Virus genome (UHGV): UHGV-1361184
From: a virus
Length of the DNA stretch: 39,532 nt
Reading direction: 5' to 3' (one strand)
Positions 2,806-35,901 of the stretch are shown here, piece after piece. The notes under the pieces are model-generated. The model worked only from the letters and a program-made list of their open reading frames with translations, was not told the DNA's origin and made no database searches. The stretch's first letter is position 1; each line of letters begins with the position of its first letter. The position numbers and the translations under genes were made by a program.

Positions 2806-3522
<717 letters not shown>

Positions 3523-12946: not shown

Positions 12947-13687
12947 ATGCATCAAACTTTAGCCAACGCAACGTTTCAGGTCATTGCAGGTGATTCTCGT
13001 GGTAGTGGGTTCAGCTTTATGCGAGAAGATCTGGTCGTAACCAATTTTCATGTTGTCGCCACCTGTTGTGACTTACAGAGCATGCGTCAAATCAATAATG
13101 TCACCCTTCAAACTGAAGCTAATGAGCATATTGGTGCTCAAATATTGCATGTTGATGGTAGTAACGACTTTGCTATCATGCAATTGCAATCCCCCCTTCC
13201 TGGCGGAAGAACAGTCCTTCAACCATCTGCTGGGTTTGCTCCATCCAGGGGCAGAAAAGTAATTTTTGCAGGATACCCGCATGGGATACCTCTGTTACTA
13301 ACAAGTGAGGCAATTATTTCAGCACCGATGGAGCATGGCCGATTTACGCTTGATGGAATGGTTAATGGGGGGAACTCAGGAGGACCTATTATTGATCGAG
13401 ATTCGGGAGAGTTAGTAGGTATCGTCACCCAGCGTAGATATATAATGGGCGATCAGGCTGATGCTTTCAGCCAAGAAATAGCCCAACTGCGACAATATCT
13501 TTCTTCAGCAAGTCTGCATGGAAGTGTTGAGATCATGGGTGTTAATTTCGGGCAAATGGCGGACATGTTTGGTAGATCGCTACAGATTGTTTCGGACATG
13601 ATGTCGCTGAATGCTAACTCCGGAATTGGTATTGGATTTTCAATCCAGCCCATCGTTGATGTGATCACATCTTTCCCTACGAAATAA
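12947..13687 (+). CDS. Cytoplasmic trypsin-like (S1/HtrA-type) serine protease with uncharacterised C-terminal region
   Basis: Catalytic-triad motifs in order: TNFHVV (His), DFAIMQL (Asp), GNSGGPI (Ser); no signal peptide; AT-rich. Confidence 0.75.
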   Translation: MHQTLANATFQVIAGDSRGSGFSFMREDLVVTNFHVVATCCDLQSMRQINNVTLQTEANEHIGAQILHVDGSNDFAIMQLQSPLPGGRTVLQPSAGFAPSRGRKVIFAGYPHGIPLLLTSEAIISAPMEHGRFTLDGMVNGGNSGGPIIDRDSGELVGIVTQRRYIMGDQADAFSQEIAQLRQYLSSASLHGSVEIMGVNFGQMADMFGRSLQIVSDMMSLNANSGIGIGFSIQPIVDVITSFPTK

Positions 13688-29017: not shown

Positions 29018-29941
29018 ATGAAAAGTATAGCAACAGCAGTATCTACTATCAACGTGCCATTCCACGGCGCAGAGCTTTATGTTGTCAATCACAACGGCGA
29101 GCCGTACACCCCAATGAAACCTATCGTTGAGGGAATGGGTATGGATTGGGCTTCACAGTTTACAAAGTTAAAACAAAGATTTGCTAAAGGTATTGTGGAA
29201 ATCGCAATACCTTCAGTTGGCGGCGTGCAGACCATGATTTGCCTTGCTTTACGTAAACTGAATGGCTGGTTGCAAACCATCAGCCCTAACAAAGTCCGCC
29301 CTGAAATCCGCGACAATGTAATCCAGTATCAGGAAGAGTGTGACGATGTGCTCTACGAGTACTGGACTAAAGGTCATGTGGTTAACCCACGCAAAGCTAA
29401 AAAGGCGTTGCCGGGTAAAATCACCACTGAACAGCAGGAAGCCATTAAACAACTCGTCATGAGTCGCGGTCAGTCTCTGCCAAAGGAAAAACAGGCTAAG
29501 GCGATGATCACCATGTGGTCGTCACTGAAATCCCATTTTGGATGTTCATACAAAGAAATCAGTGAGGAGCAGTTTACCGAAGCACTGTCACTTGCAGCTC
29601 GAGTTCCGCTTGAAGGTGAGTTCATTGGCAAACAAGAGAAGAAAACCAACGAGCTTTCTGCAAAAGAAGCAAACAGCCTTGTATGGTTATGGGATTATGC
29701 CAACCGTTCGCAGGCATTATTCCGCGAACTGTATCCGGCATTAAAACAAATTCAATCGAACTATTCCGGCAGATGCTACGACTACGGTCATGAATTCTCG
29801 TATGTTATCGGAATGGCGAGAGACGTTTTAATCAATCACACACGAGATGTTGATATCAATGAGCCAGACGGACCAACGAATCTTTCCGCATGGATGAGAC
29901 TTAAGAATAAAGAATTACCTCCTTCAGTACATAACTACTGA
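29018..29941 (+). CDS. ant: Antirepressor Ant (P22 immI)
   Basis: 307 aa directly downstream of mnt-arc; N-terminus [23 protein letters not shown]... Confidence 0.8.
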
Positions 29942-30119: not shown

Positions 30120-31556
30120 ATGACAGACATTACAGCCAATGTGATCGTATCGATGCCTTCGCAACTCTTTACTATGGCCCGCTCTTTTAAAGCCGTAGCT
30201 AATGGCAAAATTTATATCGGTAAAATTGACACTGACCCAGTAAATCCAGAAAACCAGATTCAGGTTTATGTGGAGAACGAAGACGGCTCTCACGTTCCTG
30301 TTTCTCAACCAATCATCATTAACGCAGCTGGTTACCCCGTATACAACGGACAGATTGCCAAGTTTGTAACTGTGCAAGGCCATTCTATGGCTGTTTATGA
30401 TGCTTACGGCGTTCAGCAGTTTTATTACAAGAACGTGTTAAAGTATGATCCTGACCAGTTACGGCAAGTATTTATTGGCCCTGATGGAAAGGGTCTAGAT
30501 AACTTCTTTGGCGGCGGCGGCTGGACCGTGGCAAACGCTTCAACGGAGAACATCTATAATACCGCTGACGACACCAACAATAACGCACTACGCTGGCGCT
30601 ATGATGTGCCATCGACAGATAATCAACTCCCGATCGCCTATCTCAAGAAAACAATCACAACTACCAGGGATCCGGCTGCAGGAGGAAAGCCAGGCCGGTG
30701 GGATGAAGGCACTATTTACTCTCATGTAAAAAAACTTGGCGGCTCGGCATATGCGGCTGGTATAACCAGCATGTTTGACGCCACTGATGGAACAGGAGAT
30801 AGCGTTTCAATACACGCAAGGGCAAACGGTCGTCGTCCTCACGTTGTCGGCGGACAAGAGGGGTCGGGGGTCTGGGGATTGTGGTCGTTTGCTGTCGCTA
30901 CCCCGTCAGACGGGACATGGATTAAGCAGATGTTGGGGCTGGAGATTGACTGCATCAACAACGGACAGGCAATTCCATTCCCTGTGCCAACTGGTCAAGG
31001 TGCATATATCGGAGCACAGATAACCGCAGTTAATGGCATTTGCTCACATGGTCTTGAGATTGGCGCTGGTTCTGGCGCGTCATGGCACCGCGGTATTTTC
31101 ATCAGACAAGGCGCTATAACCCCATCAAATACATTCGCTGGCACAAGTTGCATTGAACTTGAAGGTGGTGTTTTTAATAAACGTGTTGGTGGGCTTAATT
31201 TCGGGAAAGGTTATTTTGACTACGGCATTAATTTTGCCAAGCCATCAGAAGATTACGCAAGCCTTGCTGCAATCATCATGGGTGAGGGAAACAGGATTTA
31301 CATGGGGGATTCTGTTTCATCGGCAAATTACATCGCAAAGGTAGCCGGTCAGTCCGTCTTAAACTTCCAGAACTTATCTATCGCCATTAACGGAACTAAA
31401 GTAATAGGCCCGAGAGTGACTGGGATCTTTGCACTCACTGGCACTGCTGACGGAGCAACGAAAAACACTGAAACAATGACACTCCAGGAATTAGCAAGGT
31501 ATGTTAAAAAGGGTTTTGATGCCCTTATCGGTCATGGCTTATTTAGCCCAACATAA
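30120..31556 (+). CDS. Tailspike: P22-like N-terminal head-binding domain fused to a short divergent receptor-binding domain
   Basis: N-terminal ~115 aa ([11 protein letters not shown]...[30 protein letters not shown]...[14 protein letters not shown]...VLKYDPDQ) matches P22 gp9; remainder (478 aa total) unlike P22. Confidence 0.8.
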
Positions 31557-32012: not shown

Positions 32013-33140
32013 TTACTGGAAATAGGACTCGTTTTTCTTTCTGTTAAGCTTAGAGCCAGTTCCTTTATGCCCGGCAGTAACGTGAAACTCCCATTCGTTA
32101 TTCTGCAGTGCGCTTTTTGTTAATCCGTAGAACCTTACTAAGAAACCACATTCAAGATTGTAATCTGGAAATCTAGCGACAACATCTGAGCGCTGAATTT
32201 TTCCTTCCAGGAATCCAGGAACAATCTCCTGACCTATGCGAAGATTGAAAAACTCCTGAGCTACACTCTCAGTTGGAACACACCAACCCGTGAACACACA
32301 TGACCCATCGTCTTCTCTTATGCGGTCCACATACCCATGCCATGTTATTTTTATTTCATCATGGTCAATGGTTAAATCCTGATTTAGATTAAGACCAATA
32401 TATTTAAGATATTCGTAAACATCTTCCATAACAAAGAACTTAAATGGGCTGGCAGCTTTAGAGGAGGCATGCATATCGTAATATTCAGTTTGTGTCATCA
32501 AGAATTTTTTGACCAGGTGATGACCGGCGCCCTTGAATGCTTTTAGTGCTTCAATATCATTGACGTCAACAAGGCCCTCTAACTTATTGCGCGCGCTTGC
32601 GATGTAGTCATCATAGTTCTTATGATGGAAGTGTAGGTAAATAATATCTGTATCAGTCTGCAGTCCTGATTCCACCTCTCCGCGATGAAACCCATTCCCT
32701 AGGGCAGTAATTCTTGATTTAGGGGAAAACACTTTTTCAGGCTTATGGCTCAATGCGAACTCTTTGGCATTGAGTGGATGGTTGCCATATGTGTATTTAA
32801 TTTTAAGGGTTGAGTCTATATCTTTGTATTTTAGTAATTCATCCCTCACATCATCACTTGAGAGAGAAACCTTACCCTTTGAAAACTCAACCCCAACAAA
32901 TTCGTCGCAATCAAGTGGAAGCATGAAATCATAATCATGGACACGCTTTAATTCTTCGTATTTATCTACGAAATAGATATGCCTTGTATTGAAATCGTCA
33001 AAAGTGTTTCTGTCATAAATAACATGCAACCCCTTTTGGCTATATTTTTCCAGAACGTCAGTACACCTCTGGTCGGCAGAGCCGTTATCGTAGACGTATA
33101 AATTTTCCAGGCCAAAAAGCTCAGCAGATGCAGTATCCAT
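32013..33140 (-). CDS. Putative GT-A-fold glycosyltransferase; apparent frameshift at the 5' end (N-terminal segment in the 33193..33138 frame)
   Basis: ENLYVYDNGSADQ (DxGS.D-type) and FMLPLDCDEF (DxD-like) motifs; AT-rich; MKVAVLMMQKDEYRLLEPW with AAGGA RBS lies just upstream in another frame. Confidence 0.55.
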   Translation of the reverse strand: MDTASAELFGLENLYVYDNGSADQRCTDVLEKYSQKGLHVIYDRNTFDDFNTRHIYFVDKYEELKRVHDYDFMLPLDCDEFVGVEFSKGKVSLSSDDVRDELLKYKDIDSTLKIKYTYGNHPLNAKEFALSHKPEKVFSPKSRITALGNGFHRGEVESGLQTDTDIIYLHFHHKNYDDYIASARNKLEGLVDVNDIEALKAFKGAGHHLVKKFLMTQTEYYDMHASSKAASPFKFFVMEDVYEYLKYIGLNLNQDLTIDHDEIKITWHGYVDRIREDDGSCVFTGWCVPTESVAQEFFNLRIGQEIVPGFLEGKIQRSDVVARFPDYNLECGFLVRFYGLTKSALQNNEWEFHVTAGHKGTGSKLNRKKNESYFQ

Positions 33141-33360
33141 GGCTCAAGAAGCCGGTACTCATCCTTCTGCATCATCAAAACAGCAACTTTCATCTCAAGA
33201 TCCTTTTAGTGTGTGTGGCATGAATATATCACGGCGCATTCTCCTGAGGGAGAAGCGCTGGTTGCAAACTGCTAAATCTCATGGATTCATCCTTGATAGG
33301 CCTAGCCATCTTGATCTGAATCTACTTTAAAACTACTGTATATAAAAACAGGTAAAAGGA

Positions 33361-33609
33361 GTGCAGATCATGCCCCGCAGTCACGACATTCACGCCTCAT
33401 TTGTGGCCGCAATACAGCTAAACCCCAAGGGCTACAGGTGCTTACGCACAGAAGACTTTATCCGCGAGCTGGCAAAGGTCCACTGGCATTTCAGCCGGGC
33501 CGACGCCAACGAGTGGATAGAGCGCTATCAGCCCGACTTCACCGACAAGACAACTGACGGAACCGACAATCACTACTGGATCCTGCGCAACATGGGGAGG
33601 GTTCACTGA
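33361..33609 (+). CDS. Hypothetical 82-aa protein, translationally coupled to the downstream UmuD-like gene
   Basis: Stop overlaps the next start (TGATG); gene size and position reminiscent of impC. Confidence 0.45.
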   Translation: MQIMPRSHDIHASFVAAIQLNPKGYRCLRTEDFIRELAKVHWHFSRADANEWIERYQPDFTDKTTDGTDNHYWILRNMGRVH

Positions 33610-33959
33610 TGGGCTTTCCTTCACCGGCGGGAGACTACGTAGAGCAGCGGTTAACACCGGAGCGTATCTGCGGGATCGGCATGCACAGCCGCATCCTCGA
33701 AACATCATCCGGCTTTGCCGTTATCGAACCGTGCACCAGGCTGGTACAGAATCAGGTTCTGCTGATTTTATCTGGCGGCAGAACGCAGTTTGCCAGGGTA
33801 ATGGGTAGGGCATTAATCACTGATGATGGTGAAGCGATCGAAGGGGAGGAGGCGGAGGAAGTTGAGGTGCTGGGGCGCGTGACGTTCTTCATCAACAGCG
33901 CGCTACAGGATGACAGGGTGGGTGATGGGTGGCATTACGCCACCTTTTCATCAAGCTAG
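33609..33959 (+). CDS. UmuD/ImpA-like (peptidase S24 fold) protein, apparently lacking the catalytic Ser/Lys motifs
   Basis: N-terminal GFPSPAGDYVEQRL is the hallmark UmuD/MucA/ImpA motif; no SGDSM or VKK motif found downstream. Confidence 0.5.
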   Translation: MGFPSPAGDYVEQRLTPERICGIGMHSRILETSSGFAVIEPCTRLVQNQVLLILSGGRTQFARVMGRALITDDGEAIEGEEAEEVEVLGRVTFFINSALQDDRVGDGWHYATFSSS

Positions 33960-34249
33960 TTCGCCCACCACTGCATCATTTCTCTGCGCTTAATGTAGCG
34001 GATGCATCACTATCACATAGTGATGGTTCATTACTGCTTTGTAGAATGGATAGAGAACTGAGGATAAAAAGATATCCCAAAACCCCAAAATCTCATCTTT
34101 AGGATTTGCAGAAAGGGAGGCGTGAACAGATACCTGCGCATGAAGACGGAACTAGTCCAGATGTGATATTTGTGGTGATCACATACATCATCAACGATGC
34201 TCGTTATGGTGAGTTTGATGACTACCCGCTGAAGTGAAAATAGTGTTGT

Positions 34250-34542
34250 GTACCAAATTGCGTACCAAACTAAAATCACAAATCATGAAACCCTTGTTCA
34301 TGGCGGTTCTCAGGGGTATTGCGCGTAATCGTGAAAGAGGAAGGTAGGTTGTTTATCTGTGTCTGTCATTGTCTAGTATTGTCCACTGTAGTTAATTAAC
34401 TGTCTGTTATAACTCGAAAAACAACCCTTTTTTAACCTGAGTATGTCTACGAACGTCAAATATAGTTGTTTACTGTGCGCTGTTGTCCATGTGATATTGT
34501 GTACCAGATGTGTACCAAACCATTATTTTTGAGCGTACCAAA
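34250..34542. repeat. attP region with five direct arm-type repeats GTACCA(A/G)A
   Basis: Copies at 34250-34257, 34262-34269, 34501-34508, 34512-34519, 34535-34542, flanking an AT-rich stretch just upstream of int. Confidence 0.5.
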
Positions 34543-34550
34543 TATTATTT

Positions 34551-35729
34551 ATGGCTATAAGCGACACAAAACTGCGTACTATTTATGGTAAACCATATTC
34601 GGGCCCACAAGAAGTGGCTGATGCCGATGGCCTCAGCGTACGAATTTCACCGAAGGGGGTCATCCAGTTCCAGTACCGCTATCGCTGGCATGGCAAGCCT
34701 AATCGACTTGGGCTTGGTCGATACCCATCCCTGTCTTTGAAGGATGCCAGACAGATCACTGCTGACTTGCGAAAGCTCTATTTCTCAGGAACGGATCCAC
34801 GCACTTATTTTGAAGAGAAGGTGGAGAACTCCATGACGGTCGCCCAGTGTCTCGACTACTGGTTCGACAACTACGTCTCTACAACTCTCAGAGAAAAGAC
34901 CCAGGCACTTTACCGATCAACGGTTATGAAGCGCATGCATGACGCCTTCCCTAATCGTCCGGCATCTTCTATCACGGTTAAGCAATGGGTTGACCTGCTT
35001 ACCGAAGAAGAAAAAGATAATCCACGCCGAGCAAGACAGGTGCTAAGTCAACTAAGATCAGCAATTAGTTGGTGCATGCGGCGCCAGTTGATAGATAGTT
35101 GCGCAATTATGAGCATCCAGCCAAGGGACTTCGGCTCCCGCGCTGAGGTAGGGGATCGGGTACTGTCGTATCACGAACTGGCTAAGATTTGGCTTGCTAT
35201 TGAAAGAAGCCGTGCGTCTACGTCAAATAAGCTCCTTCATCAGATGCTTATGCTGTGGGGGGCGAGGCTCTCAGAGCTTAGGCTGGCAACAAAGACAGAA
35301 TTTGACCTGCTGGACAACGTATGGACCGTACCGAAAGAGCATAGCAAGATGGGTAATGTTATCCGCCGTCCAATCTTCGAACAAATTAAGCCTTTTCTCG
35401 AAAAGGCCATGACAACGTACAATGATGTTCTTTTCCCTGGAGAAGACATAAACAAACCGATCAGCATCGCTGCAGCCAACCGATTCGTAAACAGAATAAG
35501 GGGAGGGATGGATCTAGGTTACTGGCGAACACATGATTTCAGAAGAACGCTTGTTACACGTCTGTCTGAGATGAATGTCGAGCCTCATGTCACTGAGCGA
35601 ATGCTCGGTCATGAACTTGGCGGGATAATGTCCGTGTACAATAAACACGACTGGATAGAGGCTCAGCGTAAAGCGTATGAGCTTCACGCTGATAAATTGT
35701 TCTGGCACATCAGGAGCATTTCTGATTAA
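34551..35729 (+). CDS. int: Tyrosine integrase (P4-type, DUF4102-like N-terminal arm-binding domain)
   Basis: 392 aa; N-terminal GLSVRISPKGVIQFQYRYRWHGK...LGRYPSLSLKDAR; C-terminal catalytic region HDFRRT...LGHELGGIMSVYNKH. Confidence 0.9.
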   Translation: MAISDTKLRTIYGKPYSGPQEVADADGLSVRISPKGVIQFQYRYRWHGKPNRLGLGRYPSLSLKDARQITADLRKLYFSGTDPRTYFEEKVENSMTVAQCLDYWFDNYVSTTLREKTQALYRSTVMKRMHDAFPNRPASSITVKQWVDLLTEEEKDNPRRARQVLSQLRSAISWCMRRQLIDSCAIMSIQPRDFGSRAEVGDRVLSYHELAKIWLAIERSRASTSNKLLHQMLMLWGARLSELRLATKTEFDLLDNVWTVPKEHSKMGNVIRRPIFEQIKPFLEKAMTTYNDVLFPGEDINKPISIAAANRFVNRIRGGMDLGYWRTHDFRRTLVTRLSEMNVEPHVTERMLGHELGGIMSVYNKHDWIEAQRKAYELHADKLFWHIRSISD

Positions 35730-35901
35730 CGCCACCGTTAAGAATCCACCCTTCAACAGCTTCACGAAGGTATGATTTGGGGTGGGTTCTGACTGGCTTC
35801 GGAAATCCGTGCCGTTTGGTATAGTTCCAGATTGTCTGACGTGATGAAACACCGAGCTTGTTCATCACTTCTTTCTCAGGAATCAGGCTGGTATCGGTCA
35901 T
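35710..35901 (-). CDS. xis: AlpA-family excisionase / DNA-binding regulator
   Basis: 63 aa with HTH (MNKLGVSSRQTIWNYTKRHGFPKPV); convergent with and overlapping the int 3' end. Confidence 0.6.
   Translation of the reverse strand: MTDTSLIPEKEVMNKLGVSSRQTIWNYTKRHGFPKPVRTHPKSYLREAVEGWILNGGVNQKCS

Follow-up and report, generated by a model that had tools for sequence, protein, structure and literature searches.

A two-gene cassette with a predicted SOS operator encodes a winged-helix protein and a putatively non-catalytic UmuD'-like protein in a P22-like phage

At the att-proximal end of the viral genome UHGV-1361184, a stretch of 39,532 nucleotides that was analysed as a whole and is referred to here as the window, we observe two coupled genes behind a predicted LexA operator. 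Gene 1 encodes a 79-aa protein modelled as a winged helix, while gene 2 encodes a UmuD'-like protein that we place in the HumD/UmuD' lineage as a shortened and, by prediction, catalytically dead branch. The initial annotation of this region had described the pair as an 82-aa open reading frame (ORF) followed by a UmuD/ImpA-like gene and had offered two explanations for it, a remnant of a mutagenesis operon or a repurposed S24-fold regulator. The first does not agree with our data, as gene 2 is intact, conserved in hundreds of mobile elements and under purifying selection. The second is borne out in that gene 2 belongs to the UmuD lineage and has its fold put to another use, which we tentatively take to be that of a non-catalytic UmuD' surrogate or modulator.

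RESULTS

Two coupled genes follow a recurrent LexA box

The operon consists of the following features:

33311–33339, + strand: sigma-70-like promoter read from the sequence, with −35 TTGATC (33311–33316), a 17-nt spacer and −10 TACTGT (33334–33339)
33334–33353, no strand assigned: predicted LexA operator (SOS box), TACTGTATATAAAAACAGGT, with core CTGT-N8-ACAG at 33336–33351, overlapping the −10
33370–33609, + strand: gene 1, 79-aa winged-helix protein (PHROG 3893), with Shine-Dalgarno AGGAG at 33356–33360 and a structure model of predicted local distance difference test (pLDDT) score 90
33609–33959, + strand: gene 2, UmuD'/HumD-lineage protein (PHROG 3469), with residues 1–104 forming the family body and 105–116 a frameshift tail

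Both ORFs of the proposed pair were confirmed, and the stop codon of gene 1 overlaps the start codon of gene 2 as TGATG (33607–33611). The length first given for gene 1 needs correction. Its true start is almost certainly ATG 33370, giving 79 aa, and not GTG 33361, giving 82 aa, because AGGAG lies 9 nt ahead of this ATG, the homologues all begin with MPR, a length of exactly 79 aa is shared by 85 of 96 homologous ORFs, and the profile of PHROG 3893, a family of unknown function, covers residues 4–82 of the 82-aa ORF (E-value 2.7e-39). We use o79 for genes of the gene 1 type and o116-type for those of the gene 2 type, as gene 2 of the window encodes 116 aa.

A LexA box had been suggested as something to look for upstream of 33361, and one is found there. 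The sequence CTGTATATAAAAACAG at 33336–33351 lies inside a 20-mer of which 16 positions agree with the E. coli LexA consensus TACTG(TA)5CAGTA. The pattern CTGT-N8-ACAG is matched twice in the window (0.49 matches expected), the second time inside a gene. This second match (CTGTTGTGACTTACAG, 13063–13078, within ORF 12947–13687) has a poor TA-rich centre and is probably due to chance. The promoter that the box overlaps was too weak for a generic promoter/terminator scan, which did not report it.

The box upstream of the operon is not a chance match, because it recurs in phage, genome and IMG/VR loci. All 8 diverse phage loci have a consensus LexA box ~19–40 bp upstream of the operon start. Our sample of related loci comprised 80 genome loci and 80 IMG/VR loci (160 in total); CTG-N10-CAG is found at most 120 nt upstream in 71 of the 80 genome loci, which come from different species (two of the 71 are contig-end artefacts), and a LexA box is present in 79 of the 80 IMG/VR loci. 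Among 86 distinct homologous upstream regions, 82 carry the box, with the logo TACTGTATATA(A/T)A(A/T)ACAGTA, and in 71 of these 82 we observe the geometry TTGAnn-N16-18-TACTGT, in which the box overlaps the −10. Genuine dinI occurs in some related phages as a separate, divergently transcribed neighbour: in mEp390, HK225 and HK140, the LexA box lies between the operon and a divergent dinI gene, and in Eeyore, the DinI gene is directly upstream on the opposite strand. A divergent adjacent dinI was seen in 9/80 genome loci and 14/80 IMG/VR loci.

Gene 2 retains the UmuD' arm and has lost the catalytic residues

The assignment of gene 2 as a reduced and, by prediction, catalytically dead offshoot of the HumD/UmuD' lineage follows from four observations: the Ser loop is missing, the Lys position varies, models for HumD and S24 proteins fail to recognise it, and its family nonetheless aligns with the HumD group over its full length. 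The UmuD/MucA/ImpA-like start noticed initially is real, as residues 2–20 of the N-terminus MGFPSPAGDYVEQRL match UmuD 25–43 (residues 1–19 of UmuD'). The protein begins with Met-Gly, in which the Gly corresponds to UmuD Gly25, and it thus has the form of a pre-processed UmuD' (M-GFPSPA...), with neither a Cys/Ala-Gly cleavage site nor the N-terminal segment that would precede one. The catalytic motifs were rightly reported as missing. An 11-residue deletion, found in all aligned family members, removes the SGDSM loop with the Ser nucleophile, while the position of the Lys general base is Ala/Arg in the window and varies across the family (R/K/V/S/F).

The PHROG 3469 profile ("UmuD-like protein") matches residues 1–103 of gene 2 with an E-value of 2.7e-45. 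No family-level match was obtained in Pfam, NCBIfam or PADLOC. With Pfam PF00717 (S24), gene 2 gives no match even at E ≤ 1, whereas UmuD, HumD, N15 gp26 and HK140 gp28 all match. In a plain sequence search against the PDB, the match was limited to the arm. When the gene 2 family was compared by hhalign with the group of HumD, N15 gp26, HK140 gp28 and UmuD', however, residues 1–106 aligned with residues 1–128 at 98.9% probability (E-value 2.5e-17, 106 aligned columns). The similarity therefore extends past the arm. In an AlphaFold model computed from a 53-sequence alignment (pLDDT 78), the N-terminal arm is disordered and is followed by a beta-core with the S24 beta-fold.

Conservation in the family is highest in the arm (MGFPSPAxDYxE), in an acidic loop, ITxDGEAIEGE, and in the last beta-strand. 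The acidic loop is invariant and specific to this family, being found in neither HumD nor UmuD. Arm residues 25, 28, 29, 34 and 35 of UmuD have been implicated in contacting or modulating RecA (PMC5342242), and all five positions fall within the invariant or nearly invariant arm motif of the gene 2 family.

Elsewhere in the family, the arm-coding motif looks like a recombination joint. In one database protein (P0371), the UmuD N-terminus (residues 1–24) and arm are fused to an o116-type body, and a Phytobacter locus (L079, 1955–3956) has an o116-type ORF without the arm immediately behind a canonical umuD-umuC pair.

The C-terminus also varies. In HumD-type proteins and the majority of o116-type proteins, the last residues form an acidic tail and then Pro with a hydrophobic residue, as in DDDIPIM, DDCPAI, EFDDCPVI and EFEDFPVI (homologues from loci L004, L001, L091, L093 and L176). 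Such tails resemble the C-terminal tip of the single-stranded DNA-binding protein SSB, DDDIPF. They are absent from chromosomal UmuD and from the subfamily of the window, which ends in DDRVV.

Gene 1 is modelled as a small winged-helix protein

The structure model of gene 1 has a winged-helix topology (H-B-H-H-B-B). Its putative recognition helix is acidic or neutral (RADANEWIERYQ). Gene 1 has no family match in Pfam, DinI/ImpC (PF06183) included, and a profile search of the PDB returned nothing specific. In a fold search of BFVD, the single match under an E-value of 0.001 was a 99-aa phage protein that is 70% identical to gene 1. The likeness to an impC-impA arrangement that had been pointed out thus holds for size and position, but not for homology, given the missing DinI/ImpC match and the winged-helix model.

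The cassette is widespread, under purifying selection and ancestrally without umuC

The cassette recurs in phages, prophages and plasmids across Enterobacterales genera. The gene 2 family is small and confined to Enterobacterales; among 1.84 billion representative proteins, it accounts for 328 clusters at 50% identity, of which many are full-length. An intact MGF.SP ORF of the expected size range is present in 129 of the 160 related loci. Both genes are under purifying selection, with median pairwise ratios of nonsynonymous to synonymous substitution rates (dN/dS) of 0.14 (gene 1) and 0.17 (gene 2).

As initially stated, the pair has no umuC partner: a tblastn search with E. coli UmuC found none in the window, and umuC is absent in 158/160 related loci. 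Because of this near-universal absence, we regard the lack of umuC as the norm and the ancestral state of the cassette, with no sign of loss. The same is the case for P1 humD and N15 gene 26.

Linkage of the two genes is strong. Of the 80 IMG/VR loci, 71 have an o116-type gene downstream of o79 and 3 a HumD-type gene, with the contig ending in the other 6 and no other type observed, so that a UmuD'-like gene follows the gene 1 homologue in 74/80. Each gene also occurs without the other. Gene 2 alone, with its own LexA box, is found in BUCT711 and ~20 genome loci, and HK225 has gene 1 without gene 2. Two apparently fused homologues (P0401 and P0404) seem to stem from frameshifts or faulty gene calls, and we did not count them as Rosetta-stone evidence.

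Gene 1 also has homologues on plasmids, in 1034 records, of which 948 are predicted to be conjugative. In the two plasmid loci examined, IncX3 pJEG027 (L175) and an IncFIB plasmid (L176), a pre-truncated UmuD'-like gene without the Ser and Lys lies downstream of the gene 1 homologue. Both have an insertion sequence (IS) element just upstream, where the promoter would be, and in pJEG027 half of a LexA box is left beside it.

The window carries a frameshift allele and a decayed humD-type gene

When compared to prophages in E. coli EC31 and E3, gene 2 of the window has a 1-nt deletion between 33921 and 33922 that changes GTGGTGTGA to GTGG-GTGA. The stop that normally comes after residue 105 is thereby lost, and the protein gains a tail of 12 frameshifted residues, which is modelled as disordered. 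A database protein (P0001) carries the same tail, and the 116-aa form is therefore a circulating allele.

A true remnant does exist in the window, separate from gene 2 and unnoticed in the initial annotation:

33983–34237, + strand: humD-type pseudogene corresponding to HumD residues ~45–129, with an in-frame TAG at 34100–34102 and with the arm and the first 44 codons missing

In a tblastn search with P1 HumD, this pseudogene is matched at 55% identity (E-value 1e-25). The interval 33942–34100, which overlaps it, recurs in mEp234 and in several Stx phages, where it lies upstream of int. A canonical humD-type gene probably stood at this site and was displaced by the o116-type allele. The presence of such a fossil behind gene 2 suggests that o116-type and HumD-type genes are alternative occupants of one functional slot.

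The interval 33928–33992 also occurs in P22-like prophages, as in EC31, where a convergent intS next to tRNA-Arg extends into it with its 3' end. HK620 and IME10 share the interval in their int 3' ends, and it looks like the scar of a former intS module.

The cassette lies between a glycosyltransferase gene and the att/int module of a P22-like phage

The window represents a P22-like phage or prophage of E. coli, which shares ~96% identity with phages IME10 and HZ41 in its structural and early regions and encodes a P22-type tailspike N-terminus at 30120–31556. The gene pair is placed between a family-2 glycosyltransferase gene (32013–33140, − strand) and the integrase gene. The att/int module includes:

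34207–34353, no strand assigned: attP region, transferred by homology from the annotated "putative attP" of HK140 (98% identical DNA)
34551–35729, + strand: tyrosine integrase with Arm-DNA-bind_3 and Phage_integrase domains, marking the module boundary outside the operon

An attP region had been said to follow the pair, and window positions 34167–35900 are indeed 98% identical in DNA to the HK140 segment spanning the gp28 3' end, attP, int and alpA. A search for tRNA genes at the att site found none. The gene order in HK140 is dinI, o79 homologue, canonical HumD-family gene (gp28), attP and int.

Among the other genes, 2806–3519 (− strand) encodes a lambda-cI-like repressor whose AG (Ala-Gly) site, EGNSM Ser and FKKL Lys are all intact, 29018–29941 (+ strand) a P22-type Ant antirepressor, and 2433–2774 (− strand) a 113-aa ORF with a match to BstA/KilA-N-type proteins in their N-terminal part. 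The glycosyltransferase (375 aa) lies between the tailspike and the cassette, where P22 has its gtr conversion genes. It belongs to no PHROG family and has just a borderline match to Pfam Glyco_tranf_2_4. A few prophages of E. coli (PK12, 19KM1803, E3) also carry it; EC31 does not. In the P22-like Salmonella phage BTP1 and its relatives, an unannotated stretch (2501–2749 of locus L094) matches UmuD' residues 1–84 and sits between gtrA and int, the same genomic position as the window cassette.

DISCUSSION

Possible functions of the gene pair

We favour, at close to but short of even confidence, the reading that the gene 2 protein, produced from a LexA-repressed two-gene operon, targets host UmuC/RecA* as a UmuD' surrogate or modulator without catalytic activity. 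The operon would be an accessory element of a temperate phage, namely a moron at its att-proximal end. Host LexA bound to the operator overlapping the −10 would keep the operon silent in the lysogen; upon DNA damage, RecA* would trigger LexA cleavage and switch it on, and the two coupled ORFs would yield the 79-aa winged-helix protein and a UmuD'-type protein of ~105 aa. The latter would be made already "processed", starting at the equivalent of UmuD Gly25, with no need for RecA*-mediated processing. Its protease machinery, no longer needed, would have been lost, leaving the UmuD' arm and the S24 beta-core in a protein that cleaves nothing. With such a surrogate, the induced phage or lysogen would not have to wait for UmuD to be cleaved with the help of RecA* and would control translesion synthesis at once, with the winged-helix protein serving as a dedicated accessory partner of UmuD'-like proteins such as gene 2.

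This proposed role is modelled on the relative P1 HumD, which according to the annotation of the P1 record functionally complements UmuD' and has a LexA site (McLenigan et al. 1999, cited in PMC11541004, is listed with this functional precedent). The decayed humD-type gene behind gene 2 is what would be expected of allele displacement and speaks for a surrogate. Several observations weigh against it. The body outside the arm is just ~28% identical to HumD and has lost ~23 residues, including the active-site loop; gene 2 falls below the thresholds of both the HumD model (29 versus 120 bits) and Pfam S24; and the subfamily of the window does not have the (D/E)DxPxI C-terminal tail of HumD and most relatives. 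The gene 1 and gene 2 proteins are not obligate partners, since each gene occurs without the other. An inhibitory role fits the same data, the binding of UmuC/RecA* being a proposal, and our literature searches found no study, experimental or other, of the gene 2 family.

An inhibitory role of this kind, which is possible but doubtful, would make gene 2 a decoy that damps the SOS response: the dead S24 body with its arm would bind the RecA* groove or heterodimerise with host UmuD/UmuD', acting as an uncleavable pseudo-substrate that limits LexA/UmuD/CI cleavage or blocks Pol V, in the manner of DinI, PsiB or 434 Hex and not of HumD. The dyad and the scissile bond are gone while the RecA-proximal arm is the best conserved part, as a decoy would require, and the acidic loop specific to the family, absent from HumD and UmuD, fits as well. 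So does the neighbourhood of dinI, which is divergent and shares the LexA-box region in mEp390, HK225 and HK140, and phage proteins that block RecA-mediated repressor cleavage provide a precedent (PMC3564112). On the other hand, gene 2 occupies the same operon slot as the mutagenesis-promoting HumD-type genes, so that a reversal of function is less parsimonious, and the phage's own repressor is of the cleavable lambda-cI type, such that blocking RecA* would delay its own induction.

A broader version, which we consider unlikely, treats the pair as a LexA-timed mobile-element module in which gene 2 is not a polymerase cofactor but an uncleavable mimic of RecA* substrates or a UmuD partner, and in which gene 1 binds the UmuD' arm, the single part common to every version. 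The host SOS timer (LexA/UmuD/CI cleavage and the UmuD2C checkpoint) would thereby be retuned to the element's advantage.

Less probable still is a split LexA-like regulator or antirepressor, in which the winged helix would supply DNA binding and the S24 protein oligomerisation, the two being induced by damage and controlling phage or host genes. The order of a winged helix and then an S24 domain starting from the post-cleavage Gly mirrors that of the LexA N-terminal and C-terminal domains, and UmuDAb-DdrR of Acinetobacter likewise pairs a UmuD homologue with a small co-regulator. The acidic or neutral recognition helix argues against this idea, as do the dissimilarity of gene 1 to a presumed DdrR, the occurrence of each gene without the other, and the artefactual look of the fused homologues. 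Moreover, the cassette is associated with many immunity regions and with plasmids, and the phage has a self-cleaving cI, which together make an immunity-specific antirepressor role unlikely. In SOS antirepressor systems of the 186 Tum and Gifsy type, the repressor is non-cleavable, and that of the window is lambda-cI-like with its cleavage residues.

Finally, we reject as very improbable a non-functional relic of a umuDC- or impCAB-type mutagenesis operon, for although neither umuC nor the catalytic residues are present and the pair adjoins recombination scars (the humD pseudogene, the piece that in EC31 overlaps the intS 3' end and the frameshifted last codon), both genes are under purifying selection, length, operator and coupling are conserved across Enterobacterales genera, phages and plasmids, the family forms hundreds of clusters with many full-length members, and the absence of umuC is ancestral.

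To our knowledge, orphan pre-processed UmuD' genes of mobile elements have been known since P1 humD, and their biology has barely been explored. The gene itself was already catalogued as "UmuD-like" (PHROG 3469 and the annotation of mEp390). What is new here is the branch with a lost catalytic loop, the conservation across phages of the operator and of the gene 1–gene 2 linkage, the plasmid homologues of the winged-helix partner with a dead UmuD'-like gene next to them in the two loci examined, and the fossil humD beside gene 2. This reduced, dead branch has a strictly conserved predicted SOS operator and, in most copies, the winged-helix partner, which is also carried on IncX3 resistance plasmids. 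In the family, the function of the UmuD' arm is cleanly and naturally separated from that of the protease. If the module does tune Pol V or RecA*, it would bear on stress-induced mutagenesis, prophage induction thresholds and the evolution of resistance in Enterobacterales.

Comparison with known systems

Of the known systems, the HumD family (NF051876; P1 HumD, N15 gp26, phiKO2 gp23 and HK140 gp28) is the closest. Its members are, like gene 2, phage-borne orphans without umuC; they are controlled by a LexA box, as the window operon is by its predicted box, and they start with M-GFPSPAxDYVE, the already "cleaved" UmuD' form that is shared by gene 2. HK140 gp28 occupies the same slot, after the same 79-aa gene and beside the same att/int module. 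Gene 2 differs from HumD in being ~23 residues shorter, without the whole Ser-loop segment and the conserved Lys, and it scores 29.3 bits on NF051876 (cutoff 120) over residues 1–21 only, in comparison with ~222 for HK140 gp28 and P1 HumD. The window allele also does not have the EFDDxPxI tail, and the gene 2 family has its own acidic ITxDGEAIEGE loop. Relative to E. coli UmuD/UmuD' (PF00717), gene 2 is without the 24-residue pro-segment, the Cys-Gly site, the Ser60/Lys97 dyad, a downstream umuC and a Pfam S24 match.

The plasmid operons impCAB, mucAB and rumAB likewise have a gene of ~80 aa ahead of a UmuD-like gene, on a mobile element and under SOS control. Unlike these, the window has no ImpB/MucB polymerase gene, and its UmuD-like protein is pre-truncated and, as predicted, catalytically dead. 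ImpC is DinI-like, whereas gene 1 has no DinI match in Pfam and is predicted to have a winged-helix fold.

The Acinetobacter pair UmuDAb-DdrR also combines a UmuD homologue with a partner of ~80 aa in the DNA-damage response. However, UmuDAb retains an N-terminal DNA-binding domain and cleavage, unlike gene 2, and the UmuDAb and DdrR genes are divergent rather than coupled. As a candidate homologue of gene 1, DdrR was rejected, with an hhalign probability of 0.1% against a presumed DdrR (a 78-aa ORF divergent from a UmuDAb-like gene in locus L177). Gifsy-1 STM14_3218-3220 (PMC9879122) was also checked and is unrelated. The non-catalytic S24/S26 folds of the coliphage 186 CI C-terminal domain and of S. 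pyogenes SipA occur in unrelated contexts with unrelated partners, and it is the UmuD' arm, which neither of them has, that sets gene 2 apart.
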